Assembly: GCA_963783575.1 (NCBI GenBank) | Contig: CAWAOD010000014.1 | Span: forward strand, 32,001-96,000 | From: an uncultured Spirochaetota bacterium | Lineage (GTDB): Bacteria > Spirochaetota > Brevinematia > Brevinematales > JAOACQ01 | Direction: 5' to 3' | Length of the DNA: 64,000 nt | Position numbers and translations under genes: made by a program | Notes under the pieces: generated by a model | What the model was told of the DNA's origin: nothing | Databases searched by the model: none | The model's input: only the letters and a program-made list of their open reading frames with translations | Shown: piece by piece, positions 20,017 to 58,254 of the stretch | Layout: each line of letters starts with the position of its first letter | How positions within the stretch are numbered: the stretch's first letter is position 1

Positions 20017-20025
20017 AGGTGTGTC

Positions 20026-21984: not shown

Positions 21985-22237
21985 AGAAACCCCCTTAAAA
22001 TATAATTTCATTTTATTCATACTTTGTTTATCTCCTATTATTTATTCCTAAGCTTTTAAATATGCATCAAACATATATCTTCCGATTATTGTTTAAACCG
22101 TTGATTAAGAAGATAACGTTGAAGCAATGCTGGAAACCGGGGAAACAATAATCGTGAAGGAAGATTAGCTGTTGCTACAATCTCTTATGGTTCCATTTTT
22201 CTTCACATTTCCTGCTCCTTGATATGCTGAAGCGCAG

Positions 22238-22954: not shown

Positions 22955-23059
22955 AAAAGCTCTCCTTAAATATATTTCCATATTATTCATACTTTGGTTA
23001 CTTCCTATATTATTACCATCACCTTATTAACTGGAAAATAACAGTCCTCAATGCCTTGT

Positions 23060-39729: not shown

Positions 39730-39934
39730 TATAACTGGGATTTTTTCCCTCTGTTAAAGCTAAACCAGATTTTTTTAATTTGAGGACAGGTTTCTTATTT
39801 TCAGTCTCTCTAAGGAATCTTTCCTTAAAGATTTTGCTTACCAGTTTTTTATTATAATCAAATAGCTTCAGTGTAGTTTTTTGTAAGTAGTAGAATTCAA
39901 TATTTTTCCCTTCAATCATCCGCTTGTAATGATC

Positions 39935-40190
39935 CCAAACTGAGCGATTTTTCTATCAAAAAACCTGCTAATAAAATGGGGTAAGGAAATGGTTGCAGCC
40001 ATCCTTACCCCAAAATAATAAGCATTGGGTGCTAAAGCTGGTAAACTATGTCAGAAAAAAAAGGAAATCGCAAAAATCAGAAAAATATCCTTCGGCAGAA
40101 CTCAGGAACCAAGATTCAGGAAATCGGAGTCACTCATGATTCCTTAACAGGACGCGGGGTATTAGCATTCGATAAGAATTTAGGCAAAAA
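39935..40190 (+). mobile_element. Possible internally deleted IS1380-like relic
   Basis: ORF 40048 contains IGVTHDSLTGRGVLA, resembling IS1380 transposase N-termini, then breaks off near ATAAGAATTTAGG; boundaries are uncertain. Confidence 0.3.
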
Positions 40191-40445
40191 ATTTCAGCTT
40201 GAAAGAAAAAGTGCGATAGCTAAAATATAAATCAATAATTCTTCCAATAAAAGGTAAAAAAAAGGGGAAATAAATCCCCCCTTGGTAATGGTCAATCTTC
40301 AGACTGGAAATGTCAAGAGTTTTTCCCATATCTGCGCTCGGGTAATTTCCCACCCCTTCCACAAGAGTATTTCCCATATGCTTCACAAGAGTTTTCCCCA
40401 TACCTTCCACGTGAGTATTTCCCATAGTGAGGAGGCAAAGAATGG

Positions 40446-41195
40446 TTACTCAACCTCCTTATTCAAATTTTGTATTCTGTAAGATTCTCCGCTCAAGTTA
40501 TAAATATTTGAATGATGTAAAAGCCTATCCAGAAGAGCGGTTGTCATAATCGGGTCTCCCATCATTTCAGCCCAATCCTGAAATCCCTTATTCGATGTTA
40601 TCACAATTGATGTCTTTTCATACAATTCACTTACAAGACTAAAGAATAGATTTGCCTCCTTCTTTTCGATAGGTGTGTAACCTATCTCATCAATGATTAA
40701 TAAGTGTGACTTCATCATCCGGTTCAGCCTGAAAGCAGAGCTTCTCTGGATGTCCGCCGTTTTCAGAAACTTAATGAGAGTAGTCATCCTTTCAAAGCAG
40801 ACAATATATCCCTTTTCAACTGCCCGGATTCCGATACTAATTGCCAGATGCGTTTTCCCCAGCCCCGGAGACCCAAAGAACAACAGGTTATGATGATTAT
40901 CAATCCAGCAGAAATCCAATAGCTGTGAAACATCCATTTTAGATATTCCATTCACTTTTTCAAAATTAAAACCTTCCACATCTTTGCGGACCGGGAAGTG
41001 TGCTCCTGCCATATTCCGCTGAAAACGTTTTTCCACTCTATAATTCAATTCCAGAGAAAGCAGCCTCTGCAGAAAACTCAGATAAGACTCTTTTGCCTTT
41101 TCAGCCTCACCAATTTCCTCATCAATCCGTTTTATCATACCCTTCAACCCGAGAGTTGTAAGCGCAGTTATGATTTGTTCTCTTATCTTCAACAT
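40446..41195 (-). CDS. istB: IS21 helper ATPase IstB
   Basis: GSPGLGKTHLA, LLIIDEIGY, ITSNK, ALLDRLLHH, GESYR. Confidence 0.95.
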   Translation of the reverse strand: MLKIREQIITALTTLGLKGMIKRIDEEIGEAEKAKESYLSFLQRLLSLELNYRVEKRFQRNMAGAHFPVRKDVEGFNFEKVNGISKMDVSQLLDFCWIDNHHNLLFFGSPGLGKTHLAISIGIRAVEKGYIVCFERMTTLIKFLKTADIQRSSAFRLNRMMKSHLLIIDEIGYTPIEKKEANLFFSLVSELYEKTSIVITSNKGFQDWAEMMGDPIMTTALLDRLLHHSNIYNLSGESYRIQNLNKEVE

Positions 41196-42751
41196 TGCCG
41201 GCCCCCGATGGAGTCACAGAAACTCTGGTATTTCCCGATGTCTGATTTAGCTACTTCAAGATAGTGTTCAGGATTCACTGAAGGCCTGACAATCTTTTCA
41301 ACATTCAAGGGTATTTCTGCCTTTTCTGTTATAAAACAGTTCAGGTAATTATCCCACAAATCCTTCATGGAATAACTATCACTCTCCAGGCAGTTTGAGA
41401 TCGCTTGTGTAAGCTTCCCGGTATCAATTATCTTGTCCCTGAAGTATTTTCTTCCGGAAAGACATTGGTCCCTTACATAACGATTGAACTTCCTGAAATT
41501 ACATTCAAGAAAATCCTTCCAGCCGGGAATATCAAAGTACCCGCTTACTTCTTCTTTCAATAACTGCACACTCTTTCCCATTTCCCGGATCATTGCCCTG
41601 TTGGTTACAATCTGCCCCGGAATCACTGAAAGCCGGTATTCGGCGATTTGCTCTCCCGTTATCCTGTCAAAGACAAAAAGCCGACTGCCCGTCTTGTAGA
41701 TGTCCACCGAACCGTTCCTGTATTTTTCGGGAATATCATACTGGCTTGCATCAACTGCGATCCGGCATTTATCGCTTACACTGCGCTCTTCCCTTGCTCC
41801 TATCCTGTCTTTACGGAATATCGAATTCCTGACAGATTGGAGATATGGTCTTTCCGTTTCAATCTCTATCAGTGGTATTTTCATTGTAGCCTGGGATATT
41901 CTCCCGTTGGCTTTTCTTTCCAGCCATTTCATCAGGCTTTCTTCCGCTTCCATTAAACTGTTGAACTCCCGGACTGAGAAGAAACCGTGCTTGATGAATT
42001 TGACTACGTTTTCAATCTTTCCCTTACTTTCCGGGTCAGCAGGTCGGCACACATACATTTTAAGACCCATTTCCCCGATGAAATACTGAAAGTCTTTCGT
42101 GTAGATGATATCGCCTGAGTTCTCACTCGCAACCATCGTGCAGTCCTGATCGATGACAAGTTCATGCGGTATCCCGCCCATATATGCGAAACAGTCCAAC
42201 AGATGATTGATCAGGTCTTCTGTCCGGAATGGCCTCTCCTGGAGGGCCGCATACTTAAAACGACTGGCGGATAACACCGCGGCAAATATGTAATACCTTC
42301 TGCCATATCTGTCGGTATATTGACCGAAATCAAGCTGGAGCTGCTTTCCATATGGCATGTCAGGCACTTTTGTGTAATACCGTCGCTTTTCATTCAAGGT
42401 AAGCTGCCCGCTTTCAATCAGGTAATGTACGAAATTCCTCATCGTATTTTCATTCGCCGGTAGTTTGCCTTTTACCTCCAATAAATAGTCATACAAAGCA
42501 GACATATTCAGCCGGATGTAATCATTCTTTGCATATACTTTCAATATATCTGTTTTTATTCCTTCGAATTCTTTTTCACGGAAAGAGAATTCCATCAGGC
42601 TTTTCTGGTATTCAGCATCGTTCATAGTCCAATATTTCCGGACTGTCTTAATATCTATTGACAGTTCCCGGGATACACCATTTTTACTTTTCCCCAAAAG
42701 TTTCAGTTTTTTTATGTCCTGATACATAATATTTTTCACCATTCCTGCCAT
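41189..42751 (-). CDS. istA: IS21 transposase IstA
   Basis: N-terminal HTH, QLDFG, LVIDQ, SKGKIEN (DDE triad). Confidence 0.95.
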   Translation of the reverse strand: MAGMVKNIMYQDIKKLKLLGKSKNGVSRELSIDIKTVRKYWTMNDAEYQKSLMEFSFREKEFEGIKTDILKVYAKNDYIRLNMSALYDYLLEVKGKLPANENTMRNFVHYLIESGQLTLNEKRRYYTKVPDMPYGKQLQLDFGQYTDRYGRRYYIFAAVLSASRFKYAALQERPFRTEDLINHLLDCFAYMGGIPHELVIDQDCTMVASENSGDIIYTKDFQYFIGEMGLKMYVCRPADPESKGKIENVVKFIKHGFFSVREFNSLMEAEESLMKWLERKANGRISQATMKIPLIEIETERPYLQSVRNSIFRKDRIGAREERSVSDKCRIAVDASQYDIPEKYRNGSVDIYKTGSRLFVFDRITGEQIAEYRLSVIPGQIVTNRAMIREMGKSVQLLKEEVSGYFDIPGWKDFLECNFRKFNRYVRDQCLSGRKYFRDKIIDTGKLTQAISNCLESDSYSMKDLWDNYLNCFITEKAEIPLNVEKIVRPSVNPEHYLEVAKSDIGKYQSFCDSIGGRQC

Positions 42752-42866
42752 CCTTTAATGAATTTTCATTAAAGGTAATCTTCAAGCTTCTCTATGGGAA
42801 ATCTGTTTGTGACAGGTATGGGAATTTCATTTATTGCTACCCTGGTAAATTAGTTTATCATTTCCA

Positions 42867-43035
42867 CAGACTGTTTGTTTTTCCCTGAAAGGCAGTTTAT
42901 AATCACACCAACTAATACGCCCACAGCTCCGTTTATATACTTGAGTGGTGGGCAAAGATTGTCGATGATTGTCTCGCTTGCTTCATGAAGCCCTTCCAGT
43001 ACTGTTTGACCAACTTCCATTAAATCAAAGCCCAT
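42867..43035 (-). CDS. Small hydrophobic protein whose last codons are interrupted by IS21
   Basis: GGAGG RBS; removing the IS restores ...GKNKQSED* followed by a hairpin and T-run at ~40256-40283. Confidence 0.6.
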
Positions 43036-43062
43036 AAATATTACCTCCGGGTTCTTCTTAGA

Positions 43063-43395
43063 ATGACCGATATTACGGCAAAAACCGCACTTGCGGTTGT
43101 GATTCAGGACGTGATTAATGGAAAAATGCGAAATGAAGATTATTCCGATGGACTATGGAAAAATATTATGTTACATCAGAAAGAATTTCAGACTTATTTA
43201 AAAAATCTCGGTAATTTTGTTGCGTTGACATTTGTAGAACATAGCAATGAAGACAACCAGCGCAGCTATCATTATCGAATAGAATTCAAAAAGGCTATTT
43301 TGCTCCAAAACTTTGTATTTGATGATAATAACAAAGTGTCATATCTCCAGTCAGAGGATGATTTAGTGATAACTCATTCAGGTTCCAATAAGTAA
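43063..43395 (+). CDS. Hypothetical protein, possibly a 5'-truncated fragment
   Basis: 110-aa ORF with protein-like composition, no clear RBS. Confidence 0.4.
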   Translation: MTDITAKTALAVVIQDVINGKMRNEDYSDGLWKNIMLHQKEFQTYLKNLGNFVALTFVEHSNEDNQRSYHYRIEFKKAILLQNFVFDDNNKVSYLQSEDDLVITHSGSNK

Positions 43396-43572
43396 CTGTT
43401 TTATTCTTATTAAGTTAAGGATTATTGATGAAGAAAGATTGGGGAATGGGAAATGATACTATAAATACTTTGTTTAAATTTACACAAAGTAAATAATGAT
43501 TTAGAGACAATTTTATATTTCATTACCTTACTTGTCGATATTATTGTGTTCTGATTTTAATAAGAAGGGTTT

Positions 43573-43737
43573 ATGAACATATCATCAATCACAACAAGTA
43601 CTGCAATTGATATGGGTGATTTATTGAAGGACATAAATGATATTTCAAACCAATTTCAGGATAAACTTATTAATGTTAATATAAAAGAAGAATTAATTGA
43701 CGAAAACCTTGGCCAAACGATTAATATGATGGCTTAA
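43573..43737 (+). CDS. Small acidic protein, YjfB/putative motility protein-like
   Basis: 54 aa, MNISSITTS...ENLGQTINMMA*; below the ORF-track cutoff. Confidence 0.45.
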   Translation: MNISSITTSTAIDMGDLLKDINDISNQFQDKLINVNIKEELIDENLGQTINMMA

Positions 43738-44091
43738 TAAAGAGAGTTGTAATTGATAACTATTCGAATAGAAGAGTAATATTGAATTCCTAAAGGCCCA
43801 AAATTTTAATTCATCCTATCTTCTTTTAGTAACAAACCATTCATTATCGCGGTTTATTTTATTCAGGTTTCGGCTCATCCAATCGCCGGTCAAAAACAAC
43901 ATTTTATCAGGATTATTATTCTTTGTGAAAAATAATTTAATTATAAAATCAAATGCCATTGATAAACCGCCTTTTTATGTAACCGATTATTATATCTTGT
44001 TTGTCTGGTTTAAACATAATTTGGAGAGGAATTTACTTTGTTCAAAATTGGACAAGGTCAAAAAGCTGAAAAGACATAATTTAAGAGAAAT

Positions 44092-44892
44092 TTACTTGCA
44101 CATTGAAAATAAGTCATTTAATTCTTTTAGTTGCTCATTTTCTGTTTGTAATCGCCATCTATTAGTATCAATTGTCGTAGAAAAGTTCCATGAATTCACT
44201 AATAGGGCATCCATAAAAAGTGGGTTAATTGAACCAAATAAATAATACCTAGAATGAACGTTAGGATCATTAACAACATTAAGAAGCAATTCTAATACTT
44301 TAGGGGTTATACTATTTTTTTGTATCCATCCAGATACTTCAATTTTATTTATCCAATTAGAATCAGAAATATCTAAAAAATCCATATCTCTGATTGGTAT
44401 TGAAATCATATTATTTTTAGTTTCATTAAGTTTTTGAAAGAAAAAATTCCTTCTTGCATTATCATATTTAGCATAATATTCATTAAGAGTAATTACTTTT
44501 AACTTTCTATTACTGTCTAATTGATTCCAAAATACTTTTATCTGTTGAAGTGTTAAAACAGAATTAGGATCTAATAGATTAATACTATTATTAAACATCC
44601 AATTTGCATGAGATGATTTTACTCCAAATGAAATAACTTTATTATTATCTATTATTTGAAATTGCTGGTTTTTAATTTTTTTCTTTGCTAATTCACTATT
44701 AATATAATCAACTATCTTATTAAAAAAATAATTTTGATCTTTTGAAGAAAAATATGTTTTAATAAATTTCAAATCTTTTAAAGCATGATCCACATCTGAG
44801 CTTCTATACAAAATAAGAGAAAATAAAATTATTATTGATACAATAGATATATTAAAAGATATTCTTTTGGCCTCTTCAAATAAACTTTTCAT
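44092..44892 (-). CDS. Hypothetical protein with N-terminal TM segment, possibly truncated
   Basis: 266-aa ORF, very AT-rich, GAAGGA RBS. Confidence 0.55.
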   Translation of the reverse strand: MKSLFEEAKRISFNISIVSIIILFSLILYRSSDVDHALKDLKFIKTYFSSKDQNYFFNKIVDYINSELAKKKIKNQQFQIIDNNKVISFGVKSSHANWMFNNSINLLDPNSVLTLQQIKVFWNQLDSNRKLKVITLNEYYAKYDNARRNFFFQKLNETKNNMISIPIRDMDFLDISDSNWINKIEVSGWIQKNSITPKVLELLLNVVNDPNVHSRYYLFGSINPLFMDALLVNSWNFSTTIDTNRWRLQTENEQLKELNDLFSMCK

Positions 44893-44931
44893 ATTATTTC
44901 CTTCACATATTTTAAAACTAATGATAAATCA

Positions 44932-45264
44932 TTATTTTTTTCCTTTCTCCTCCATAATCCGCTTCACCACCTCTTTCAACGTTTCATCTGCCTGATAATC
45001 ACTTTTATTGGTAAGTACCTGCTTTAGCATTCTTCTCCCAGAACTTTTCTTCAATTCTTTTTCACGCAATAGCGCTTCTTTAAAAGAATCAAAACATTCC
45101 AGATAAAACAAGCGAACCGGTTTATATTTTTTTGTCCAATTGGCTCCTCTGCCGGATAAATGCTGATTCCAGCGGTTGATTACATCCTCAGTCTGTCCGA
45201 TATATACAGATTTATTCTCACACTCAATAGCATAAACAAACCAATGCTTATTTTCAGTGGGCAC
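44932..45264 (-). CDS. GIY-YIG nuclease family protein
   Basis: FVYAIEC...VYIGQTED...RWNQH..G.GA.WTK...E..LK. Confidence 0.85.
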   Translation of the reverse strand: MPTENKHWFVYAIECENKSVYIGQTEDVINRWNQHLSGRGANWTKKYKPVRLFYLECFDSFKEALLREKELKKSSGRRMLKQVLTNKSDYQADETLKEVVKRIMEEKGKK

Positions 45265-45269
45265 TATTT

Positions 45270-45462
45270 TTAATCCTTGATTTTTTTATTGTAGTTTTCT
45301 AACTTTTGCTTTTCTTCTAAAATACATTTAAGGAGTTTTTCAGCAGTTTCATCATTCGGGGCTGGTTCTAATTCAATTTCTTTCCACAATTTTAATTTCC
45401 TCTTCAGCCAGTCTATACAGTTCATAAACCAGCTTATCTATTTTATTATCCGGAAATTCCAT
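45270..45462 (-). pseudogene. Fragments of restriction-modification genes
   Basis: IDKLVYELYRLAEEEIKIVE (like type IIG C-termini) and PNDETAEKLLKCILEEK (like HsdS C-termini). Confidence 0.5.
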
Positions 45463-45998
45463 AAATTAATTCCAAATGATTTTTAATGATTGATTATACA
45501 TCTAACGTTTCTTTCTGGCAAGACATAAAATTAATTTATAATGATAGTTTTTCAAACTTCCCTTATAGCCCTACTTTTTCATTAAGATTATTTTATACAC
45601 AAACTATGTTTCCAGTGACTATAAGACAAGAAAAACATAAAATTGAGGGTTAGGGGAATTATAAAATTCAAATACTGGATTTGACTTTCCCTTATTAAAA
45701 TTATAAGAATTTTCACCAGGAGATTTTATGGAGTCCCGTTATATTGAATACAATGGCAAGTAATACCAGGTGCAAATTAGTAAAGTATCACATGGCTATG
45801 TTACTGAAATTTTGGATAATGATAATATTCTCACTTCTTTCAATTCTAGGAAACCAGCTACAGATGAAGTGATTAATGGGACACTTGAAACTAAAATCTA
45901 AGATGGGTAATGAGAAGGAAGGGGATTAGATAATTTACTCATGGCGGGAAATTTGTTTTGTTTTTCACGTTGTTGTGATGTTTGCAAAAACATATTCA

Positions 45999-46826
45999 TC
46001 ATAATATTTCTTTTATAAAATTTTCTAAATTATAAGTTTTACATTTTATTGTAACCAGGAAATTATATAAGTTTTCAACTTGCTTAATTTTTTTATCATT
46101 TTTCATTCTATTAATTAAATTGAATCTTTCATTATCCAAAATAGCATAATCATAATAGGGTATATAAGTTAGATGCCAATAATCTCCTAAATCAGAATCT
46201 TTTGCTTTTTTATTTTGAATATAATATTCATAAAATATTGATATAGTTACAATATTACGAGATTTAAAACATTCTTCTATTATATTATCTTTATTCCTAT
46301 ATTTATCTATAAACCATTTATGATATATATATAAATCTTTTATTAAATTAGTTTTAAGATATAACCAAGTTTGAAAAACTGAGTATTTACCATCTTTCTC
46401 GGGCAAAAATTTTTTCTTTTCATTAATTATGTCACTCAAAATTTCTTTACTATATATTCTATATTCATTTTCAAATTCAGATATTTTATCATTAAAATTG
46501 ATTTCAAAATCTTTTTTAACAATCCATTTATTATTTCCTAATTGAGAAGAATGCAAAGCAACAGGTAACTCAATCTCATTTGGATAATTATCTACTTCTT
46601 CTTTAAATAACACATCAATATTTTTTGTAATAACAAATGGAATTGAAACAAAAAAATCTAATATATTACCCCAACTTGATTTCCATTTATAAATTTCTAT
46701 TAAAACAAGAATATTTATTGCTAACGTTAATTTATTAGAATCAATGAAATCAATAACTTTATTTCTAAATTCACTATTTTGGGTTATCTTTGCTAAAGCA
46801 AAAGTATCAATAAAAATAAAATTCAT
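45999..46826 (-). CDS. PIN-domain-like hypothetical protein
   Basis: IFIDTF N-terminal strand, LIEI, late DSDLGD acidic motif. Confidence 0.5.
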   Translation of the reverse strand: MNFIFIDTFALAKITQNSEFRNKVIDFIDSNKLTLAINILVLIEIYKWKSSWGNILDFFVSIPFVITKNIDVLFKEEVDNYPNEIELPVALHSSQLGNNKWIVKKDFEINFNDKISEFENEYRIYSKEILSDIINEKKKFLPEKDGKYSVFQTWLYLKTNLIKDLYIYHKWFIDKYRNKDNIIEECFKSRNIVTISIFYEYYIQNKKAKDSDLGDYWHLTYIPYYDYAILDNERFNLINRMKNDKKIKQVENLYNFLVTIKCKTYNLENFIKEIL

Positions 46827-46923
46827 TACTTTTCCTTAAATATGCAGTTGTTTTCTGAATTGTTCACACAACAAAATGGTCAGAATGGATTGATGAAGCA
46901 ATAAAATAATAACTTTATTATAA

Positions 46924-47428
46924 TTATAATTGTTTTCTAAGTATTAACTTAGGAATAAATTTACCATTATTATCATTATAAACAATAATTAGAAATCTAT
47001 CACTACTATTTCCTAAGATATAACTATTTATAGATTGTTCAAAATTATTAAATAGGACTTCTATTTCTTCTTTTATTTTTGTTTGACATATCATTATTCT
47101 TTTTTCTGCATTTGATAAAAGTAATTTTTCGAAGTCATATTTTATTGCAGGCCAATTCATTTCCCATTCAGATTCTAAAGTTAATGAAACTGTTATTAAT
47201 CTTTCATTCAAATCATTTTTATACCATACTAAATCATATAACCACCCTGGGGAAAATCCAGGAGTTGCACAGACACTATAACCTAATCCTTCACCCAATT
47301 CTCCCTATTATTTCTTTAATTTTATTAGTCCATATTTTATTACTTCTCCAACTGTTCTGATGTGCTTGTGTGGAAAACTCATTTAATGAATCAACGATTC
47401 TTTGTTCAATATCATCTAAATTTATCAT
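46924..47428 (-). pseudogene. Possible PD-(D/E)xK nuclease-like gene with one frameshift near 47303
   Basis: AGGAGG + ATG 47428 (MINLDDIEQRIV) joins ORF 46924-47298 with one base removed; WLYDLVWY...LESEW. Confidence 0.5.
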
Positions 47429-47488
47429 ATAAACCTCCTACTTATTATATTTTTTCTATTGAGTAATTCGTCAACTTTATTACTATCT

Positions 47489-47511
47489 GGGAAATTAGTT
47501 TATCATTTCCA
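47489..47511. mobile_element. Solo IS21-like end 1
   Basis: AAATTAGTTTATCATTTCCA identical to the last 20 bp of the IS (to 42866). Confidence 0.7.
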
Positions 47512-47543
47512 ATTAGGAGCACAGCTTGTAGCGGTTGTTAGAT
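47512..47543 (-). other. Truncated attC-like site
   Basis: Minus strand ATCTAAC-AACCG-CTACAAGC just after the stop, fitting the R''-spacer-L'' layout; abuts an IS21-like end. Confidence 0.55.
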
Positions 47544-47559
47544 TACATTGGCCGTTGTT

Positions 47560-48438
47560 TTATTCATTTTTTTTTAATTCACTAAAATACTTTTTATTTA
47601 TTTCATAAATTTTTAGAAATTTACTATAATTACCTAAATCTGAATATACTTTCAACTTATCAATATCTTCTTTTTTATATTTTATCATAATATTTGTGAT
47701 CATAAAAATTGTCATAATTAAAGAAAATAATAGTGTAACAAAGAGTAAAATAACTCCCTTTATGGATAGCATTGATTGATAATTTAGAATATTTGGATTA
47801 TTATTATCTACGGGTAAAAGGCATAAAGGAAAAATAACACCTATATAAAATAGAATCAATATAATTATAATTGACCAAAATATCAATATAGATGATTGAG
47901 GATTTATCTTTATTTCATTTATAAAATTATTGATTAATTGTATGTTCTGACTAATCTCTATTATAAGATTATTTATTGATTCTTTTTCTTCATTTATTTC
48001 GTTAGTATTTAGCATTGACAAATGAGGAAATGAAGTAGGTATAAGACTCCCAAACATTGCTTTTTTTTCTTGTGTTTTTTTATAATTTTTTATTCGTGAG
48101 TCAATTTCATGAAGAATTTCGACTCTATCATCGAATAAAGAGAATTTTAATGAGTTATAATATTCCAAACTACTTTTTTTTATTCCATTCTTTTCTAAAT
48201 TATCATTTAGTTCTTCAAATTCTCTTTTTCTAATATTATTATTGTACCAAGTAAAATATCTGTTATTAATCTTTTCTTTTAAACTTTTAGAATTTAAAAT
48301 AAATTCAGATAATTTATCATTATTAACTTTATAAATAGCTTGATTTGAAATAATTTTTGTTATAATGAATGATCCTATTAAACCAACAATTGCCGCTATT
48401 GATTGTGATAATGAACTATAAAGCCAATTCCAATCCAT
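47560..48438 (-). CDS. Hypothetical membrane protein in a cassette-like unit
   Basis: 3 TM segments; flanked by GTTAGATG and ATCTAAC core sites. Confidence 0.65.
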   Translation of the reverse strand: MDWNWLYSSLSQSIAAIVGLIGSFIITKIISNQAIYKVNNDKLSEFILNSKSLKEKINNRYFTWYNNNIRKREFEELNDNLEKNGIKKSSLEYYNSLKFSLFDDRVEILHEIDSRIKNYKKTQEKKAMFGSLIPTSFPHLSMLNTNEINEEKESINNLIIEISQNIQLINNFINEIKINPQSSILIFWSIIIILILFYIGVIFPLCLLPVDNNNPNILNYQSMLSIKGVILLFVTLLFSLIMTIFMITNIMIKYKKEDIDKLKVYSDLGNYSKFLKIYEINKKYFSELKKNE

Positions 48439-48756
48439 AATTACCTCAAATAAAAAAAAACTAGGGCATAATGTCATCTAACTCGATTTATTGAAGTTTG
48501 TATATCCCGGAAAATTATGGGTAATATTCGAACTTATTATATTACATTTAATAACCTTATTATTACAATGTAGTTTATTTAAATTTTTTATAATCAATCA
48601 AGAACTATTTTTATTAATAGGTTATAGTGTATAACGTTCTTATAATATACCCTTTCAAAAATTAAGTCAAGCGAAAAAACTAGGAACAACACTTATTACT
48701 TTTTAATCTAATAAGCTAGACTAATATTTAAACTTTGGAAGAGACAAATAGGGAAT

Positions 48757-49581
48757 TTAGTTTATTATTTCTAATTGTTCAACATTATTTTTTCTCTGGA
48801 AAATCTCCTTTTCTATGGAACCTGCTACTATATCAATTTCTGTTTTATTTACTTTAATTTCTTCTTCCAGGGTTGAAATCTTTTTAAAAACATACTGAGA
48901 AATAGTTTCTCTAATCTCTGGTGTCATGTTCATAAACCGAAAAGCACAAAAATTCTCCTGGTAGGACACAACAATACCATTAATAAATATATTTTTTCCA
49001 TCTAAAATGAATTGAATGTTTTTAACTTCTAAGCCAACTATTAATGAATCAACTGGGAATATCCCGATTAATTTGGCTGCAACACCGCCAATACTTATAT
49101 CTTTTATCTGGCCTATAATCAACTTCGAATTATTTGGTGAGCGAAATTTCATTCCAATATTATCATCTATTGATATTCGAACAAACTTCCTTTCAGGCGG
49201 AACGCCAAGAACTTTTTGATATGTATTTATAATATATTTGTAAATAAAATCTTCAGAGGAATCATTCTTAATAAATCCTATAATGCCGCATTGAATTGCA
49301 GATATAATGTCATTTTTATCTATAGAACCTATGTGAAGAATTACAGTTGTTTTATTCACTAATTCAGATGAATGCTTTTTAATTTGCCTCACTAGTTCAA
49401 AGACAGTTGCAAAATTCTCTTGTATAGCATCCAAAATTACTATTTCGGGATTGAGTTGCAAGATTTTGTTGTTTATATTTTCAGGCCGTACCGTGTGAAA
49501 TAGATTTATTCCTGATGGTATCAATGCATTGACAAATGTATTTCTAGTATAGTATGACTGTGTGTATATTAAAACATTCAT
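48757..49581 (-). CDS. Receiver-like + PilZ domain protein, paralog 1
   Basis: ERKFVR (RxxxR) and DISIGG c-di-GMP motifs; N-terminal REC-like fold. Confidence 0.85.
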   Translation of the reverse strand: MNVLIYTQSYYTRNTFVNALIPSGINLFHTVRPENINNKILQLNPEIVILDAIQENFATVFELVRQIKKHSSELVNKTTVILHIGSIDKNDIISAIQCGIIGFIKNDSSEDFIYKYIINTYQKVLGVPPERKFVRISIDDNIGMKFRSPNNSKLIIGQIKDISIGGVAAKLIGIFPVDSLIVGLEVKNIQFILDGKNIFINGIVVSYQENFCAFRFMNMTPEIRETISQYVFKKISTLEEEIKVNKTEIDIVAGSIEKEIFQRKNNVEQLEIIN

Positions 49582-49699
49582 ACTTTATCCAATCCTTATA
49601 TTTCCACTATTAAATTATTATAACACAATTGATTTGAAAACGTATCACCCATGAGGGGTGATATTGGCAAAAAATTTCTTTAATAAAAGATAAGGGTTG

Positions 49700-49767
49700 T
49701 ATGGAAATTTTATTTGTGACGGGTATGGGAAAATTGCTTGTAACTACCCTGGGGTTTATCATTTCCA
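49700..49767. mobile_element. Solo IS21-like end 2
   Basis: TTTGTGAC.GGTATGGGAA...CTACCCTGG..GTTTATCATTTCCA aligns to 42793-42866. Confidence 0.75.
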
Positions 49768-49831
49768 CTATTTTCCTGGGGAATCCATAATTCTTTATTT
49801 CCGGGATAGCACAATTTTATTTATCTTCTGA

Positions 49832-50659
49832 CTATACAATAGAATCTTGTTCATCATTATTTTGGCCCTGGGGATTTTCCTTTTCTCCAGAAACAGCAGT
49901 ATCGATGGTTTCTGTCTTACTTACTTTAATCTCTTCTTCAATAAGCGCAATCTTCTTAAAAATATACTGAGAAATGGTTTCTTTAATCTCGGATGACATA
50001 CCAACAAAAAGAAAAGCACAAAATTTCTTCTGATAAGCTACGATAACGCCATCAATAAATATGTCTTTCCCATCTAAAATAAATTGCATATTCTTAATTT
50101 CTGAACCAACTGTAAAAGAATCCTGCGGAAATGTTCCAATCAATTCGACAGCGATACCGCCAAGACTGATATCTTTTACTTGACCAATAATCAACTGTGA
50201 ATTATTCGGCGAGCGAAATTTAATTCCAATACTATCATTATGGTCGATTATTACTCGAACATATTTCCTTTCAGGCGGAACCCCTAGAACTTTTTGATAG
50301 GTGTCCATAATATATTTATAAACAAAATCTTCTGTGGAATTACTTTTAATAAATCCAATAACGCTGCACTGAATAGCAGATGTTATATCTTGTTTATCAA
50401 TAGAACCTATTAGAAGAATTATAGCTGTCTTTTTTACTTCTTCAGAGGAATGTTTTTTTATTTGTTTCACGAGTTCAAATACTGTAGCAAAATCATCATG
50501 TATCACTTCAAGAATTACTATTTCTGGGGAGTGCTGTAAAATTTTATTATTGAGATTTTCAGGTCGTTCTTCATGATATAAATTTATTCCAGCTGATAAT
50601 AATGCATTAACAAAAATGTTTCTGACATAGTATGACTGTGTGTATATTAAAACATTCAT
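49832..50659 (-). CDS. Receiver-like + PilZ domain protein, paralog 2
   Basis: ERKYVR and DISLGG; similar to paralog 1 over its full length. Confidence 0.85.
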   Translation of the reverse strand: MNVLIYTQSYYVRNIFVNALLSAGINLYHEERPENLNNKILQHSPEIVILEVIHDDFATVFELVKQIKKHSSEEVKKTAIILLIGSIDKQDITSAIQCSVIGFIKSNSTEDFVYKYIMDTYQKVLGVPPERKYVRVIIDHNDSIGIKFRSPNNSQLIIGQVKDISLGGIAVELIGTFPQDSFTVGSEIKNMQFILDGKDIFIDGVIVAYQKKFCAFLFVGMSSEIKETISQYIFKKIALIEEEIKVSKTETIDTAVSGEKENPQGQNNDEQDSIV

Positions 50660-50734
50660 ATTTTATCCAATCAATATTTTACCTATTAATTCAGATATAA
50701 GTCAATAGAAATCACATAATTATAATTGTATTAT

Positions 50735-50868
50735 TTGGGAATTTCAATATTCTTACTATTGGTAATACTACCATAGGGGCTATGGGAAAAACACTCGTAA
50801 TATGTTGGGCTTGGAGTAGGGCGGAAATTTATTTGGAAGCAAGGGTGGTATTTAGTTTATTATTTACA
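50735..50868. mobile_element. Degenerate solo IS21-like end 3
   Basis: TGGGAATTTCA, TATGGGAAA and GGTATTTAGTTTATTATTTACA resemble the IS end and its subterminal repeats. Confidence 0.5.
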
Positions 50869-51009
50869 ATAATCTAGTTGATTTTAATTTGCCAAAGTTT
50901 AATGGTAACTAGGGTAATATTAGGTGCTTTTGTTAAGGGAATAGAACAGATATACCTTATTGAACAGTTATATGATGTATTGGTGCCTATATTGGAAAAT
51001 AACTCTATT

Positions 51010-51582
51010 TTAATAAATAAAAGGTATTAATCGCTTTGTTTTATTCATATATTCAATATATTTTGAACCAAAATGTTCTATTAGTGCTTTTTCTTCAGCA
51101 TATATTCGGTAACTTATTGAAATAAAAGTTGGAATTATCATAATACAAATACAAATCCAATTATTCATGGCTATACCGCTGCCTGATAAAGCTAATAAAC
51201 TCCCTAAATATGCAGGATGTCTGATAAATTTATATATGCCTCTGTCATATATTTTATGGTTCTGAACAATGGTTACAGAATATGTAAATTGTCCCTTTAA
51301 TGTTAATATGGCACTAATTCTAATAATAATTCCCAATATAATAAAGAATAATCCAAATATCAACAGATAAATCGGATTTCGAAATAATATTCCATAATGT
51401 TGATTAAAGTAAATATTAAATGAAATAACATATCCTAATCCAATAGATACATTAAATAAGATTAGACTTCCCTTATCTTTATTCTTTTCAACTTTTGAAC
51501 TAATTTGTCTTTTAATACCATTAATTAATTCAAATATTCCCCAAGATAAGGCTACCACAGGAACAATATATTTCTCTAACAT
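51010..51582 (-). CDS. Isoprenylcysteine carboxyl methyltransferase family membrane protein
   Basis: GIYKFIRHPAYLG, RIYAEEKAL...FG..Y..Y...RLIPFIY. Confidence 0.9.
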   Translation of the reverse strand: MLEKYIVPVVALSWGIFELINGIKRQISSKVEKNKDKGSLILFNVSIGLGYVISFNIYFNQHYGILFRNPIYLLIFGLFFIILGIIIRISAILTLKGQFTYSVTIVQNHKIYDRGIYKFIRHPAYLGSLLALSGSGIAMNNWICICIMIIPTFISISYRIYAEEKALIEHFGSKYIEYMNKTKRLIPFIY

Positions 51583-51640
51583 AAAGACTAACTCCTTTAT
51601 TGCATTTTTATATTAATCGAAAATATTTTTTTATTTTAAA

Positions 51641-51703
51641 CTTGCCAACGGTCCGACTTCAGAAAATGGGTAGCACTTTTTCTAAAGGTTTGATGTTGCT
51701 GGC
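51641..51703 (-). other. attC-like imperfect palindrome
   Basis: Minus strand CCAGCAAC...GTTGGCAAG, ~60-nt imperfect stem with bulges, between two minus-strand ORFs. Confidence 0.45.
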
Positions 51704-51843
51704 TGCTGTACAAATTAAAAAACTTAAATCTTCTATTTTAGCAATATTTTGAACTATTATCGGTTTAAACCCTAATGCTTTCCAGGTATTTTCAGCATCC
51801 ATTATTTTGAAATTGACATTAAAATTCATTTTTTAATTCCTTT

Positions 51844-52359
51844 TTAAAGAGCTATCCAGTATCTTTGCTTAATTTTGTCTCCTTCAGTAACTTCATTTTC
51901 AAGAACACCTCCGTTAGCTATTATTGTTTTAGCTGAAGCGATGTTATCATTATCACAAGTAATAAGAATTTTTTTTATATTCATTTCAAAACATTTTCTT
52001 AATGCCAGATTTAGCATTATCTTTGCATATCCCTTCTTACGTTCTGATGGGCGGATTCCATATCCTATATGCCCTCCATAGTTGAACAGATAGTCATTTA
52101 ATATATGACGTATTTGTATTCCTCCTATTATTTATCCAAAATCATTTATCATAAAATACGAGCTTGCAGTGACCAAATCAGAAGGACAGGTTTCCTTTTT
52201 TTGAAAAGATAAGACATAATTCAACCGCGTTTTATAATCCTTATCTAATTGATTTATAAAACCCGGAACAATTTTTTCACCAGAATTCTTAAACTCATTA
52301 ATATAATCATTAAATGAAGATTCCATTTCTAATTCTGGGAAGACGAGCTTAAAACCCAT
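51844..52359 (-). pseudogene. GNAT acetyltransferase with in-frame TAA at 52132-52134
   Basis: Same frame continues IIGGIQIRH...GGHIGYGIRPSERKKGYA...RYWIAL*. Confidence 0.8.
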
Positions 52360-52573
52360 ATGATTTTATACCTCTTTATTACTAATTATTCTATTTATCC
52401 TTGGTTGGAACTTTTATCCAAATTTCAATAATTGTCTTTCATCAATAGGATATTATCCCACAATTAATCCAACAATCCAAAATAACAAAAATATCATTCA
52501 GAACCACCTCCAATCTTATTATTTCCCTTTATTATCAAAATTCCCTTGAGTCTGGCAAAGCTGTAAAAAGGGA

Positions 52574-53265
52574 AAGCAGGCAAAGCAAGGGGGAAATAAC
52601 AAATATCTATTATAATGGAAAATTCCGATTTATATACCTGTTTATATTGAACTAATAAAATAGATAACCATAATTATAAAGATAAAAATATTTGAAACCA
52701 GAGTAATTTTTTCATTAAACTCTTTCGGTTTATTTATAATATGCTGGATTCCAGCAAACCCTAAAAAAAGACCTCCCAAAAGAGCCCTACTATTCTCCAT
52801 GAAGGAACAAATATTGAAATTATTCCTACCAGCCCCATACTAATATTTGCAAAGCCTAATTCCTTAATAATGACGTAGCTTTCTGTCGTCTTCATATTAA
52901 AAATATTAATAGCTGTATATGAAGGAGAAATTGACTGCCTCAAACCTGCCGTAAAAAGTCTTATCCCAACCCAAAAAACAAACCATTTGCCAATTAAAGA
53001 CATAATTCCTTGATTACTTTTAGTTAACAATATTTCTAAAACAATAGAAATTATTGGCAGCATCAGCATTAACATAATTACGGAAAATAAGTAAAAATTG
53101 AAAGATCTTCTTTTCGTATTAACCATATATAACTCCATTTTACCAAATTTACAAAAAGATACAACCTTTATAATATAAATGGTATAGTTATTTGAAAGTC
53201 AATAACATAACTTTTATAAGTTCTTCCGGTTATCTCATAAGTTAAGCAGGCAAAGCAAGGGGGAA
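52574..53265. repeat. Perfect 22-bp direct repeat pair
   Basis: AAGCAGGCAAAGCAAGGGGGAA at 52574-52595 and 53244-53265. Confidence 0.75.
52642..53138 (-). pseudogene. Membrane protein (DUF6790-like), frameshifted near 52785
   Basis: KWFVFWVGIRLFTAGLRQ, ELGFAN; alternate frame continues GGLFLGFAGIQH. Confidence 0.6.
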
Positions 53266-53268
53266 GAG

Positions 53269-53699
53269 CTACTTACTATTATTGAAATAGCCCTGTGTCC
53301 TCTGTAGATTGAGAATATCATTCTGTTTTATAATAGATAAAACCATTTCTTCTCTGGGTTTGAAATTATCAGCAAGTTCAAATTCATTAATATGCTTCAA
53401 TAATGTGCCGTCTTTATGCTCAAAAAATGTTTTAATAGATAATTGATATACAAAAGAGTTAACGGCGGTCTTCTTATTAAGACTATTGTGAAATTTTCTG
53501 GAATGATAACTATCTCTAATTCCACATCACCCGATGGCGTTCCTCTCGATATAGTATGAATCAATCTTTCATTTTGGAATAATATTTCCTGTGTTACAGC
53601 TATTGGGTCAATCTTCTTCATAAAATCCACTTTTGAAATTTCATTAAAAGCCTTTTCTCTGGAGCAGTTCAAAATTATTTCTTCATTTATCTTAGGCAT
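53269..53699 (-). pseudogene. SRPBCC/START-like protein, frameshifted
   Basis: MPKINEEIILNCSREKAF N-terminus; coding-like sequence continues in another frame to 53269. Confidence 0.45.
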
Positions 53700-53729
53700 A
53701 ATGGCTTCTCCTTATTATTAGTTATTTTA

Positions 53730-54197
53730 TCAATAATTCAATGATAAAACTTTTCTAAGAGCAGGAACGGGAAGTCCCGATTTTTCAACCAAAACCTTAA
53801 GCTCTCCAGCAAGAAAGTTCATTTCATCAGGTGCTTGAGAAACATGATAGACCCCGCCAATTTCTAATAATTTTGTTTTCAGCAAAATTCGTAAAATTCC
53901 AACTATAATGAAACGAGGAATAATATAAACGATATTTGTTTCTTTAAGAAATATTCTATATCCGAGAGCCTTGATAACAGAATATGATTCCCGTGTTGCG
54001 TCCACCATAAGTTTTAAGTCTTCGGTAGATTTGGCCAATTCTCGTACATTCAATTTATATTTCATAACCAATAGGGCTATTCCAGCCTTGTATAATTCAG
54101 TAGCGCATGCACAACCATTTACACCAGCGCCTATCACAAGTATTCTTGCATTATCGGTTTTTATTATATGAATCCTAATAAAAATATAATTGAGCAT
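53730..54197 (-). pseudogene. Internally deleted ketopantoate-reductase-like gene
   Basis: Rossmann start RILVIGAGVNG joined almost directly to a C-terminal segment (APDEMNFL...SGLPVPAL). Confidence 0.55.
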
Positions 54198-54270
54198 ATG
54201 TATTTTTTCTTTTTGCGACTAATTGTTGTTCAAATTTAGACAAAATTAACTTATTAAACTGGCAATTGGC

Positions 54271-54314
54271 AATTAAATGGCACTTCTTCAAAAATGAGCA
54301 AGTGCCATTTAATT
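54271..54314. terminator. Long perfect hairpin downstream of the SDR gene
   Basis: AATTAAATGGCACTT-N14-AAGTGCCATTTAATT. Confidence 0.5.
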
Positions 54315-54370
54315 TTATTGTAAACATTCAACTTGTTATTGTGTATCGTGGTTTGCTAATTATAATGTTT

Positions 54371-55090
54371 TTATTTTATTCTCATACCTCCGTCACACTC
54401 AATAACAGTTCCTGTCATATAAGTATTTTCAAGAAGTAATAAAATTGCTTGAGCTATATCTTCTGGCTGCCCAATACGACCTACTGGAGTATTGGCTGCA
54501 ATTTGAGCAAACATTTCTTCACGTTGTTCTTTAGTCCATGTATCCCACCATGAAGTCTCGATTATACCAGGAGAAACAGCATTTATACGCATTGGTTTGA
54601 TTTCCAGTGCTAAAGTTGGAATCATAGACTCTAATGCACCATTAATAGCCGCAAGACCACTGGTACCAGCAAAAGAACTGCGTGCTGAACCAGCAGTAAC
54701 AAGTACTATTGATCCATTATCTCTAAGTGTTTCTAAACCAAATTGAATAGCCATAAAATAAGTAAAAAATTTTGCATTAAAAGCCTCTTTTAATAATTCA
54801 CTATTCAAATTTTTAAAGGGTCCACCTCCACCTTTCCCGCTGATTGATAACACTAAATGGTCAAAATTTCCTAAATTCTTGTAAAAATTTTTTAATGCTT
54901 CAGATGATATTGCGTCAACAATGACTCCTTTTGTTGTGCTAGGTAATTCAGCAATAGCACTCTTTAATTTTTCTGGATTTCTTCCGGTAATTACTACTAT
55001 TGCTCCAGCAGAAGTAATTAGTTTTGCCGTTGCTAATCCAATTCCTGATGTCCCTCCCATAATTACAACTTTTTGGTTTTTTAAACTCAT
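54371..55090 (-). CDS. Short-chain dehydrogenase/reductase
   Basis: GGTSGIG, RINAVSPG, CDGG. Confidence 0.92.
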   Translation of the reverse strand: MSLKNQKVVIMGGTSGIGLATAKLITSAGAIVVITGRNPEKLKSAIAELPSTTKGVIVDAISSEALKNFYKNLGNFDHLVLSISGKGGGGPFKNLNSELLKEAFNAKFFTYFMAIQFGLETLRDNGSIVLVTAGSARSSFAGTSGLAAINGALESMIPTLALEIKPMRINAVSPGIIETSWWDTWTKEQREEMFAQIAANTPVGRIGQPEDIAQAILLLLENTYMTGTVIECDGGMRIK

Positions 55091-55204
55091 AACTATGCCT
55101 CCAAAATTAAATTATTGACATTATAACTCATATAGACTATAATTACAAGTATGCACTTTTATGTAAGTTAGTATATAATATATACCTTAATTAAGGAGAA
55201 AATT

Positions 55205-55534
55205 ATGAAAGAATTCATTTGTTCATTAGATACTGCTATGTATATGATTGGTGGAAAATGGAAATTATTTATAATCTGGAACTTAAAAGATGAAAAAAAA
55301 AGGTTCAACCAACTATTAAAAATTATTCCCAATATAACTCAAAAAATGCTTACTCAACAGTTAAGAGAATTAGAAAGAGATAATATTGTTAACAGGAAAT
55401 TATACCCTCAGATACCACCAAAAGTTGAATACAGTTTATCTGAAATTGGAAAGAAGCTTATTCCTATTATAACAAGCCTTTGTTTATGGGCATACGAGAC
55501 TGCTGATATTAATAATTTTAAAATTAATAATTAA
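55205..55534 (+). CDS. HxlR-family winged-helix regulator
   Basis: IGGKWK, ITQKMLTQQLRELE, PPKVEYSLS; divergent from the SDR gene. Confidence 0.92.
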   Translation: MKEFICSLDTAMYMIGGKWKLFIIWNLKDEKKRFNQLLKIIPNITQKMLTQQLRELERDNIVNRKLYPQIPPKVEYSLSEIGKKLIPIITSLCLWAYETADINNFKINN

Positions 55535-55745
55535 TTTAATATAACGAAATAATTACAAATTTTGTCATATAAATCTTGTTAGATGCAATAGTATCTATTA
55601 TATTTGTAGAATTTGATTAATTGAAGTAAATTAATGATTGATAAGTTTCACAAAGTAAATTATTTAAATTTATTTTCTAATTCTTGATACAAATATCTAG
55701 ACTTCATCTATCACTAATGATTTTATCAATAATAAAGATTAGATA

Positions 55746-56918
55746 TTAACTTTTTAATATATTCATACCCTGTTCAGTTATTTTAAGAATATTGTCCTTT
55801 ACCAGTAGTTTATTTTCAAAAAGTTTCTCGATACAATTTTCAACCGCTTTTTTTAAACCTCTATTATTATTAATTCCGAATCCCTTCAAAAATATATTCT
55901 GGCTTGTATCCAGTTTTGAATATGCTAATTTCTTTAGATTGTCTACAGAGGCAAATTCATTATCCTTAATGAGTGTAAGCAGAAATCTGGTATATTGATT
56001 AACTTTAAACCTTTCATAGATTCCGAAACGGTATTTGGAAAGGTCAATTTCTTCTGAATTTGTGCTTTTAATAATATCAATTATTAATTCAACAGCACTT
56101 TTACAGATAATTAAAGCAACAACTAAACCCACAAAAATATCAAGCCACACAAATTTTAATACAGCCGCGGTGAGACCTATTAAAACACCAATCGCAGTAA
56201 TTACATGATTCCTTGAATCAATTGATTGAGTTAATAATGGAGATGAGTGTGTCCTTATACCCACAAAACGCTGATAAAAAAACAATAATCCGCATAATAC
56301 TGCTGAAATAAGCGCCGCTAAAAAAGTAAATTTGCTTATCTCAAGTTTTCCAGGTTGAAATATCCTTATTATCGCTTCGAAAAGAGTAATAGTACCAGTA
56401 ATTACAATAAAAAAGACCAATATATAGTTGGTAATCTTTTCTTTTTTAGTCCGAATACCAATCAAGACAATTAGGCTTGCAATAAAATCGGCCAGGGTAT
56501 CCAGAGAATCATTTAAAAGACCTATACTTCCCGATATAATTGCGGCAGGAAACTTTATGCATGCCAGAACAATATGTGTTATTAAAGTTAATTTGGAAAC
56601 CAGAGTAGGTGATAATATTTTCACAAAAAACTTTTTACTTTGATTCATTTGCTTATATAGAAATTGTGCTTCCGCCATTCCTTTATCGGTTAACTGATAT
56701 TTATCTCCCTGTTTAATAACCCAATTCATACCTTCGAGTTCTTCAATTTTTTCTTTAATCCATTCAGAAAAGGTTTTGTTTGATTTTTTCATTACTGTCT
56801 TATTGAAACTAAGAAAACCAAATCTTATGCCTATTTCATTAAAGTATCTCTCTATATCTGATAAACTGCCAGATCCATTGATTAATGAAATTGCAACTAC
56901 ACGGTTTTCATCACTCAT
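55746..56918 (-). CDS. Cation diffusion facilitator family transporter with extra terminal domains
   Basis: Six TM segments, GSIGLLNDSLDTLAD, SSPLLTQSIDSRNH, WLDIFVGL. Confidence 0.8.
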   Translation of the reverse strand: MSDENRVVAISLINGSGSLSDIERYFNEIGIRFGFLSFNKTVMKKSNKTFSEWIKEKIEELEGMNWVIKQGDKYQLTDKGMAEAQFLYKQMNQSKKFFVKILSPTLVSKLTLITHIVLACIKFPAAIISGSIGLLNDSLDTLADFIASLIVLIGIRTKKEKITNYILVFFIVITGTITLFEAIIRIFQPGKLEISKFTFLAALISAVLCGLLFFYQRFVGIRTHSSPLLTQSIDSRNHVITAIGVLIGLTAAVLKFVWLDIFVGLVVALIICKSAVELIIDIIKSTNSEEIDLSKYRFGIYERFKVNQYTRFLLTLIKDNEFASVDNLKKLAYSKLDTSQNIFLKGFGINNNRGLKKAVENCIEKLFENKLLVKDNILKITEQGMNILKS

Positions 56919-57063
56919 AATAGAGAACTCCTGATAGCTTGGACTGTAAAAATATATTAAAACTGATAGGATAAATTATAATAAACCGAAATAAAAACCA
57001 CAAAAAACAATTATTAATAAGTATTGAAATCAAGATAAGAAAAATAACTAAATATTGATTGAA

Positions 57064-57113
57064 ATGGGAAAAATTGTTTTTCATTACCCTTGTAAATTAG
57101 TCATACATTTCTA
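57064..57113. mobile_element. Degenerate solo IS21-like end 4
   Basis: ATGGGAA...TACCCTTGTAAATTAGTCATACATTTCTA versus IS ATGGGAA...TACCCTGGTAAATTAGTTTATCATTTCCA. Confidence 0.6.
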
Positions 57114-57135
57114 TTGATGCTGGCGTAGAAGACAA

Positions 57136-57741: not shown

Positions 57742-58254
57742 TATTATTCCTCAATATAAATATTTTGGTCCGACCTTTATCTTTCAACTACCCATTATCA
57801 ACTTTCTAAAACTTTATGATTCCTAAAATAGTACTACCAGCACCAATGACAACAATAATTACTCCTAAATTATTTCATTATAAATCTAAATGTAAAAGTA
57901 TTCAAGTTCAATATATCCAGTATGGCAGGTCAGACTTAATTGAATAAATAATAAAAACAGAGGGTACCAGATGTCAGACTTAGGGGATTATTATTTGTGA
58001 AAATATTTTATTTTCACAATAAAGTGTGGGAAATTATTCAAAATTATAATGATTTCATGACAATTATGGTTGAAAATTTATTATTAATTTGCCCTTCATT
58101 GCACGTTTGCTGCCATAGGGTCATAAAAGGGTGGATTATCGATTACATATCTGATATTGAATTAAGAATGAAGTTATTTCAGGTTCAGGAACAGTTAAAA
58201 TAACGAATTATACCAATAGCAAATTAGTAGGAGAATTGTATTGGCTCAAATACC

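Follow-up and report, generated by a model that had tools for sequence, protein, structure and literature searches.

The single-ended structures of ISApl1, an IS30-family element found around mcr-1 (Tn6330), were at first attributed to one-ended transposition, but later work showed that they arise by decay; in the accessible text of that report, some keep 42 or 90 bp of one end, and their joints fall at microhomology (PMC5821093). Here we describe a similar situation in a 64,000-nt window (contig C14, positions 32001-96000) of the genome of an uncultured Spirochaetota bacterium, where five short pieces (25-142 bp) of one end of an IS21-family insertion sequence (IS) lie in an array of accessory genes near an intact element of that family. 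We consider it probable that these pieces are decay scars of the ISApl1 type and that the intact copy arrived separately and afterwards. The locus differs from ISApl1 in that the element is of the IS21 family, has ends made of several repeats and duplicates 5 bp of its target, in that five scars share one array, and in that there is no composite transposon or resistance gene and the window has no empty sites.

Partial IS copies at joints are also described for IEE-type excision and for insertion-deletion-excision, where the loss of flanking DNA together with the IS can bring genes together (10.1101/2023.06.07.543989; PMC8860574). In the strand-switch model, as given in the available part of its source, synthesis starts in the DNA adjoining the attacked end and then switches to a short matching sequence on the far side of the element (10.1101/2023.06.07.543989). 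The present case is similar in that IS21 is a circle-forming family and that the genome encodes an AEP primase-helicase, likened to IEE by domain architecture and not by sequence to the E. coli protein. The cases described in the accessible sections of these reports are members of IS3, IS1 and IS30, whereas IS21 is named there only as circle-forming.

Within the IS21 family, the accessible text on IS5376 describes an istA-istB organisation, terminal CA, repeats about 23-24 bp apart, a 5-bp duplication and structure-based target choice by IstB, all of which have parallels here (PMC10122671, PMC11208146). The same text gives no clear target specificity for IS5376 in vitro, whereas 3-4 of the 15 IS21 copies of our genome lie in attC-like sites.

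Directly repeated IS sequence among unrelated genes also characterises IS26 translocatable-unit arrays and one-ended capture by ISEcp1. Unlike these, the present locus has no intact repeated IS, no duplication around an IS with its passengers and no moved passenger copy. Integron cassette arrays and clusters of attC sites lacking integrases (CALINs) consist of one-gene units in a common orientation, each stop codon being followed by a repeat, and are reshuffled between genomes. In the literature covered, which included little subscription content and no supplements, we found no report of IS21 end clusters, of IS21 in attC sites or of the CTTTGCCT repeat described below.

Results and discussion

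The genome (G000) comprises 4.9 Mb in 18 contigs, with 89.85% completeness and 4.91% contamination. Between 43 and 58 kb, the window consists of an AT-rich array (28% GC) of accessory genes that are mostly co-oriented; GC content below 30% was found in 5 of 482 non-overlapping 10-kb intervals of G000. Frameshifts or premature stops interrupt several of the array genes; these may be sequencing errors. Names such as GNAT-like or ketopantoate-reductase-like, which reflect resemblances, were not used as evidence.

The intact element (40305..42866, minus strand, 2562 bp) is a member of the IS21 family: istA (41189-42751), encoding a DDE transposase, is followed by istB (40446-41195), encoding an AAA+ helper, and the element has TG...CA ends, terminal repeats and its own 5-bp target duplication, CAGAC (40300-40304 and 42867-42871). 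IstB matched NF038214 at 253.9 bits (cut-off 200); IstA matched rve above the cut-off and NF033546 at 147.5 bits, under the cut-off of 160. The left, istA-proximal end (42793..42866, minus strand) has a TG tip and three repeats at 24-bp spacing. G000 holds 15 IS21 copies, 11 with a 5-bp duplication, and their orientation follows no rule (5/15 are co-oriented with the nearest open reading frame on their left side). Two copies without duplications, at C5:110132 and C10:70600, share swapped CCCTG flanks, a sign of recombination between copies.

Models of the IS21 ends, built solely from intact elements or unbroken ends of them, were scanned over the whole genome with nhmmer, with the reversed genome as the decoy. 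Five left-end remnants were found in 9.7 kb of the array, with tips at 47511, 48773, 49767, 50868 and 57113 (s47, s48, s49, s50 and s57, respectively). Among non-IS matches of the 4.9-Mb genome they rank best, and all are on the minus strand, like the left end of the intact IS21. Four of them had been noticed in the original prediction as recurrences of the istA-proximal end without a transposase and in one orientation. Both observations hold: judged against the reversed-genome decoy, the recurrence exceeds chance, no istA or istB remnant was found in 42.9-60.2 kb, and the fifth, s48, which had been missed, has the same orientation. That the ends are intergenic does not extend to s48, which holds a stop codon, and "solo" does not strictly describe s57, which retains 5 nt resembling the far tip.

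Remnant s47 (47475..47511) is 37 nt long, with one complete repeat and no target duplication, and its tip lies 48 nt past the stop codon of a 305-aa orphan gene. It is identical to the left end at 24 of 25 positions over 47487-47511 (nhmmer E 0.002 and 0.0004); the perfect 20/20 stretch claimed earlier is real, but spans 47492-47511 and does not start at 47489. Remnant s48 (48749..48773) is 25 nt long, with one repeat, a TA tip and no duplication, and is closest to a metagenomic IS21 left end (21/24). It lies at the end of the first of two tandem PilZ-domain paralogues, A and B (48757-49581 and 49832-50659, minus strand), which are 76.7% identical in DNA. The stop codon of PilZ-A is inside s48, the tip is 0 nt past the stop, and the PilZ-A/PilZ-B alignment ends 1 nt from the tip. 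The tail of PilZ-A was cut at the s48 tip, which is a real junction.

Remnant s49 (49699..49767; 73-76% identity) has three repeats, a 6-bp deletion in the first repeat and no duplication; it is closest to the IS21 variant of C8 and G001, a relative of the same genus, and its tip lies 64 nt past the PilZ-B stop. Remnant s50 (50727..50868, 142 nt, TGTA...TACA) is strongly diverged and combines a left-end-like tip with inner repeats (50804) that match the right-end model (E 0.003). It lies between copies of ATTAT (50722-50726 and 50869-50873), with its tip 141 nt past the upstream stop codon. Remnant s57 (57060..57113, 54 nt) consists of two left-end repeats and the far-tip-like TTTCA, has a TA tip, and lies between copies of ATCAA (57055-57059 and 57114-57118), 22 nt past the read-through stop of a TMEM175 gene; its join appears to involve a 3-nt CAT overlap. 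On its own s57 is weak (E 2 and 0.12 in two left-end searches, absent at E<=5 in a third).

The non-IS matches that beat any decoy were 49767 (8e-10), 47511 (0.002), 50804 with the right-end model (0.003), C10:79041 (0.1) and one further right-end-model match (0.85); the best decoy E values were 1.0-1.1 for the left-end model and 12 for the right-end model. With a sequence-only model of five IS21 variants (R1), the top four non-IS matches of G000 among the 150 of 1522 candidates that were scored were 49767, 47511, 57111 and 48771, all within 9.7 kb. A 24-nt matrix of the IS21 left-end tip ranked 47511 first (34.7 bits), 48773 second (23.9) and 50868 fourth (18.8), against a decoy maximum of 18.6. 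Mapped over the genome, the ends are clustered and co-oriented; the scattering in both orientations that had been named as a counter-indication was not seen for IS21.

Random positions of the region have CA and a matching outer 5-mer within 15 nt at a frequency of 0.0022 per site. By this measure, which was chosen after the sequence had been viewed, finding CA and a duplication at two or more of five sites has a chance probability of 5e-5 (0.016 without the CA condition). Because s50 and s57 are each closed by CA and a perfect 5-bp duplication, their flanks were contiguous before the insertion.

These duplications bear on the reading advanced in the original prediction, in which repeated one-ended IS21 events added gene modules, the left ends were the joints, and a composite bounded by the right end of the intact IS and a remnant tip could still be mobile. 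The clustering and single orientation, the location of the tips 0-141 nt past stop codons and the true junction at the s48 tip fit such a history. In the accessible parts of two reports, moreover, IS21 integrates left-left or right-right end pairs in vitro (PMC10122671), and retained ISApl1 ends may still mobilise mcr-1 (PMC5821093). However, the duplications of s50 and s57 largely refute it at those sites, and none links the intact right end (40305) to any tip: the outer 5-mers at the five tips differ from the flank of 40305, and none joins an IS with passengers. Self-BLAST of 42.9-60.2 kb retrieved neither a passenger gene within an IS21 composite elsewhere nor a passenger copy beside an IS21 end, and the remnants derive from several variants. 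As IstA requires two complete repeats, according to the available text (PMC10122671), s47 and s48, which have one each, would be poor donors. Furthermore, s48 and s57 have no terminal TG, and none of the remnants appears to combine the terminal TG/CA and two complete repeats of a functional IS21 donor end. The expectation that segments shared with relatives would break at the ends failed, with none of 18 segment ends (tabulated with short, IS-end and duplicate rows left out) at a remnant tip and the nearest 55 nt away. One-ended accretion is at best partly supported, and we consider it unlikely: some of the remnants, s48 among them, lie at places where DNA was deleted, but no case of gene capture by one end was found.

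In the decay explanation that we favor, IS21-family elements would have inserted several times between the genes of a dispensable array, and each would have been lost by a deletion that started 25-140 nt inside the left end and whose other side was joined, through a short microhomology, at the far tip or beyond it in the flank. A deletion stopping at the far tip would keep the 5-bp duplication (s50, s57), whereas one running into the flank would remove the duplication and some neighboring DNA (s47, s48 and s49, including the PilZ-A tail at s48). A copy-out that aborts through a strand switch, the route proposed for ISApl1 and IEE, might account for such losses. Were synthesis primed in the flank adjoining the attacked end, that end would survive, and the landing site would decide the fate of the duplication; retention of left ends would be explained if the right end were the usual donor. 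The remnants resemble different IS21 variants, which we count in favor of separate insertions.

A further remnant at C10:79041 can be compared with an empty site. Here, 22 nt of the present IS21 right end lie inside a 250-bp attC-like repeat; compared with 11 other aligned copies of the repeat, this fresh scar has 13 nt of IS tip in place of 17 nt. The retained end is joined at a 9-nt microhomology, AGTTTTTCC. This comparison indicates that IS21 in G000 is lost by deletions that leave an end stub.

Several observations weigh against the decay explanation. The window remnants have no empty site for comparison, and no close relative holds the locus. Three of the five (s47, s48 and s49) have no duplication, and ATTAT, which flanks s50, is a common 5-mer in the region (0.008 with CA, 0.10 without). 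Five remnants in 10 kb and one elsewhere form a cluster that is partly unexplained, and the co-orientation of six elements has a probability of about 1/32 by chance, although intact copies follow no orientation rule. The C10 scar retains a right end, so that left-end retention is not absolute. In the accessible part of the ISApl1 work, deletions are mostly near one IS length, whereas the window remnants vary (10.1101/2023.06.07.543989). The IEE label of the primase-helicase comes from domain architecture, and its role in excision is putative. Our BLAST survey of ten other IS families was noisy; a published survey, as far as its available text goes, describes no orientation-biased IS family in Spirochaeta (PMC3971601).

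The gene for the primase-helicase (C14:154318-156807) lies about 65 kb from the array and encodes 829 aa with an AEP-TOTE primase domain (PF22548, 336.5 bits) fused to an SF2 helicase (ResIII and DEAD), the architecture of IEE. A primase-domain match was present in 3 of 5 genomes searched; G006 (94% complete) has two IEE-like genes of similar length and G011 a shorter frame.

The remnants might also be unrelated random truncations held by selection, for example as promoter elements for the next gene. Remnant s50 supplies the -35 of a sigma-70-like site upstream of PilZ-B (50719..50747, minus strand; identified solely by an 11/12 consensus match), with the -10 over the duplication and flank. 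Elsewhere, a left end with 70 nt of the istA start in G011 (C5:267769) is an ordinary truncation, and two IS21-end-like remnants in G006 (C1:620617 and C2:1868066) show 24-bp periodicity and are co-oriented with downstream genes, one of them abutting a joint-like piece. Yet such matches are frequent in this DNA (135 observed, 106 expected), and the gene after s48 has its own match outside the remnant, as do, judged by eye, those after s47 and s57. Random truncation would also leave istA pieces and right ends, and none were seen. We regard this explanation as improbable. Two further ideas were rejected: a 24-bp register shift does not fit the remnant lengths (25, 37, 54, about 70-90 and 142 nt), and s50 and s57, although they have duplications as an IS21-derived miniature inverted-repeat transposable element would, each occur once and have no more than 4-7 nt of the far tip.

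Relatives having the same IS21 end belong to the Brevinematales or to uncultured Spirochaetota. The exact left-end pattern occurred at 7 genome loci and 6 metagenome loci in the sequence collections; the 10 loci that were inspected comprised one intact IS21, two ends at contig edges and seven chance-like matches, and no remnant cluster was found at them. In G001 (57% complete), the flanking gene of the array was not recovered.

Remnants of one end are not confined to IS21. An IS481-like element that is intact in G011 is represented by 3'-end-only remnants at >=7 sites of G000, on both strands and with no 5' end among them, although some are duplicates of one remnant. One such piece lies in the window (57871..57910, plus strand), with a weaker tip motif at 51649; others are at C4:5059, C5:364224, 367692 and 482560, and C9:122383, 394810 and 397199. 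The flanks of the intact G011 element look attC-like. Just outside the right end of the intact IS21, 39934-39991 is the lone end of a multicopy IS (1710 bp, about 12 copies), which we take to be IS1380-like.

The scars, if correctly explained, would add the IS21 family to those that decay in the ISApl1 and IEE manner, and they caution against reading co-oriented solo IS ends as proof of one-ended gene capture. In our view, two side results matter more and are leads worth following: the preference of IS21 for attC-like sites and the CTTTGCCT-joined gene arrays.

IS21 in this genome often inserts into attC-like sites. At C5:457 kb, a frameshifted integrase-like gene (TIGR02249 100.5 bits, cut-off 265) is followed by a co-oriented array of 250-bp attC-like repeats. 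This array spans C5:457-482 kb, and several orphan attC-like clusters are present on C4, C9, C10, C12, C13 and C16. Three firm and one partial of the 15 IS21 insertions are inside attC-like sites, and one more is 8 bp outside. Those inside are C4:18071 (empty site folding at z -4.4), C9:124998 and the recombined pair C5:112693/C10:73162; the insertion at C13:210469 has a left arm only, and C5:464883 is the one 8 bp outside. The C13 empty site is not a full attC fold (z +2.1), and the truncated C9 site has z -0.9. For sites making up 0.15%, 3% or 6% of the target, the probability of at least 3 of 15 insertions in them is 1.6e-6, 0.009 or 0.057, respectively. In the insertions inside attC-like sites and in the C10 stub, the right end, as read by eye, points towards the 5' arm. 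An IS21 that prefers attC-like hairpins, and enters them in a single orientation, would offer a natural way to test whether IstB chooses its targets by structure, and an attC-targeting IS21 would provide a route for cassette arrays to lose their recombination sites.

These insertions, together with the integrase-like gene and the attC-like clusters, are consistent with a decayed integron-type cassette cluster in the window, in which attC sites were the targets of IS21, and every loss of an element destroyed the site, with a stub left where the joint had been. The s47 flank begins TCTAAC, like a left arm. However, it scores 8.9 bits on the G000 left-arm matrix, against a decoy maximum of 22.2, and it was not found as an attC arm in 150 other genomes, viral contigs or plasmids. 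C14 has no attC-model match, the insertions inside attC-like sites point the opposite way from those in the array, and no attC is seen at s50 and s57, although their flanks are complete. An integron origin of the array is therefore doubtful, and we think it unlikely.

The sharpest 3' ends of segments shared with relatives lie not at IS21 tips but at a second repeat, which has two types. The long type (52532..52595, minus strand) consists of a CTTTGCCT core followed by TTTTGATAA, follows a DUF6790 gene and ends in a promoter match (TTGATA-N17-TAGAAT); the short type (53239..53273, minus strand), GCTCTTCCCCC..CTTTGCCTGC, follows a frameshifted gene of unknown family. The DUF6790 module (52578..53142, minus strand) is 94.7% identical to a module in G008, and homology stops at CTTTGCCT (52578). 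The module at 53248..53700 (minus strand) is 89.5% identical to one in G010, and homology again stops at CTTTGCCT (53248). Five further pairs among G006, G008, G010 and G000:C8 stop between 1 nt before and 5 nt after the CTTTGCCT core, whereas many more diverged pairs stop near the stop codon instead. Single array genes occur in other contexts in relatives: an ICMT-family gene (51010..51582, minus strand) is followed by s50 here, and its G008 homologue by the second repeat.

The second repeat occurs 38 times in 60 kb of G006 (C1:690-750 kb), always on the gene strand (38/38) and mostly within 53 nt of a stop codon (30/38); none was found in the reversed decoy of this region. These counts come from models trained on the same loci. 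Genome-wide models gave 26 and 50 matches in G006, 3 and 15 in G008, 1 and 4 in G010, 1 and 5 in G000 and none in G011. Of 301 genomes from the phylum, three matched a strict pattern (G000, G006 and another with a single match), and searches of plasmids gave no useful match. Co-oriented CTTTGCCT-joined arrays lie at G006:C1:581-750 kb and C2:1854-1860 kb, G008:C1:815-818 kb, G010:C4 and G000:C8:34326-35160, and the same modules recur in different orders across such arrays. Tyrosine recombinases lie near two of the arrays, at G006:C2:1841-1849 kb and G008:C1:825-833 kb.

Like integrons and CALINs, second-repeat arrays have co-oriented single-gene units, a repeat after the stop codon and reshuffling. 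Unlike them, the repeat lacks AAC/GTT boxes, its folding does not exceed that of shuffled sequences (z -0.6 to +1.7), its long type carries the promoter match, and no integron integrase (TIGR02249) exceeded the cut-off in any of five genomes (best in G006, 87.8 bits against 265). Construction by a REP/RAYT system or a retroelement was rejected, since no Y1 transposase (PF01797) or reverse transcriptase (PF00078) match was found in G006, the genome with the largest arrays. Exchange at the second repeat may be site-specific or may reflect homologous recombination between terminator-like repeats. We tentatively raise the possibility that the array was built by an undescribed cassette system of this Brevinematales family, with exchangeable single-gene units ending 3' at a C-rich CTTTGCCT, the long type giving the next gene a promoter, arrays of tens of units without integrase or attC, and IS21 scarring the joints later, just as it scars attC sites in other parts of G000. 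If built by a dedicated recombinase, CTTTGCCT-joint arrays would be a gene-cassette platform missed by attC-based tools.

Rfam gave no matches in 40.0-60.2 kb, and PADLOC on five array proteins returned a weak match only. Between the PilZ genes, a palindrome (TATCACCC..GGGTGATA, 49643..49663) occurs at 8 intergenic sites in the genome, adjoining TATTATAA, and is probably the operator of an unknown regulator and not a mobile end. A cation-efflux (CDF) protein encoded at 55746-56918 has additional N- and C-terminal regions without a Pfam family. Elsewhere in the window, an AAA ATPase and DUF3226 pair (18943-20691) matches the PADLOC AbiLi/PDC-M38 models and is a candidate defence system, tandem BspA-like leucine-rich-repeat paralogues lie at 21253-22990, and positions 1-1099 contain direct repeats of 246/489 bp.

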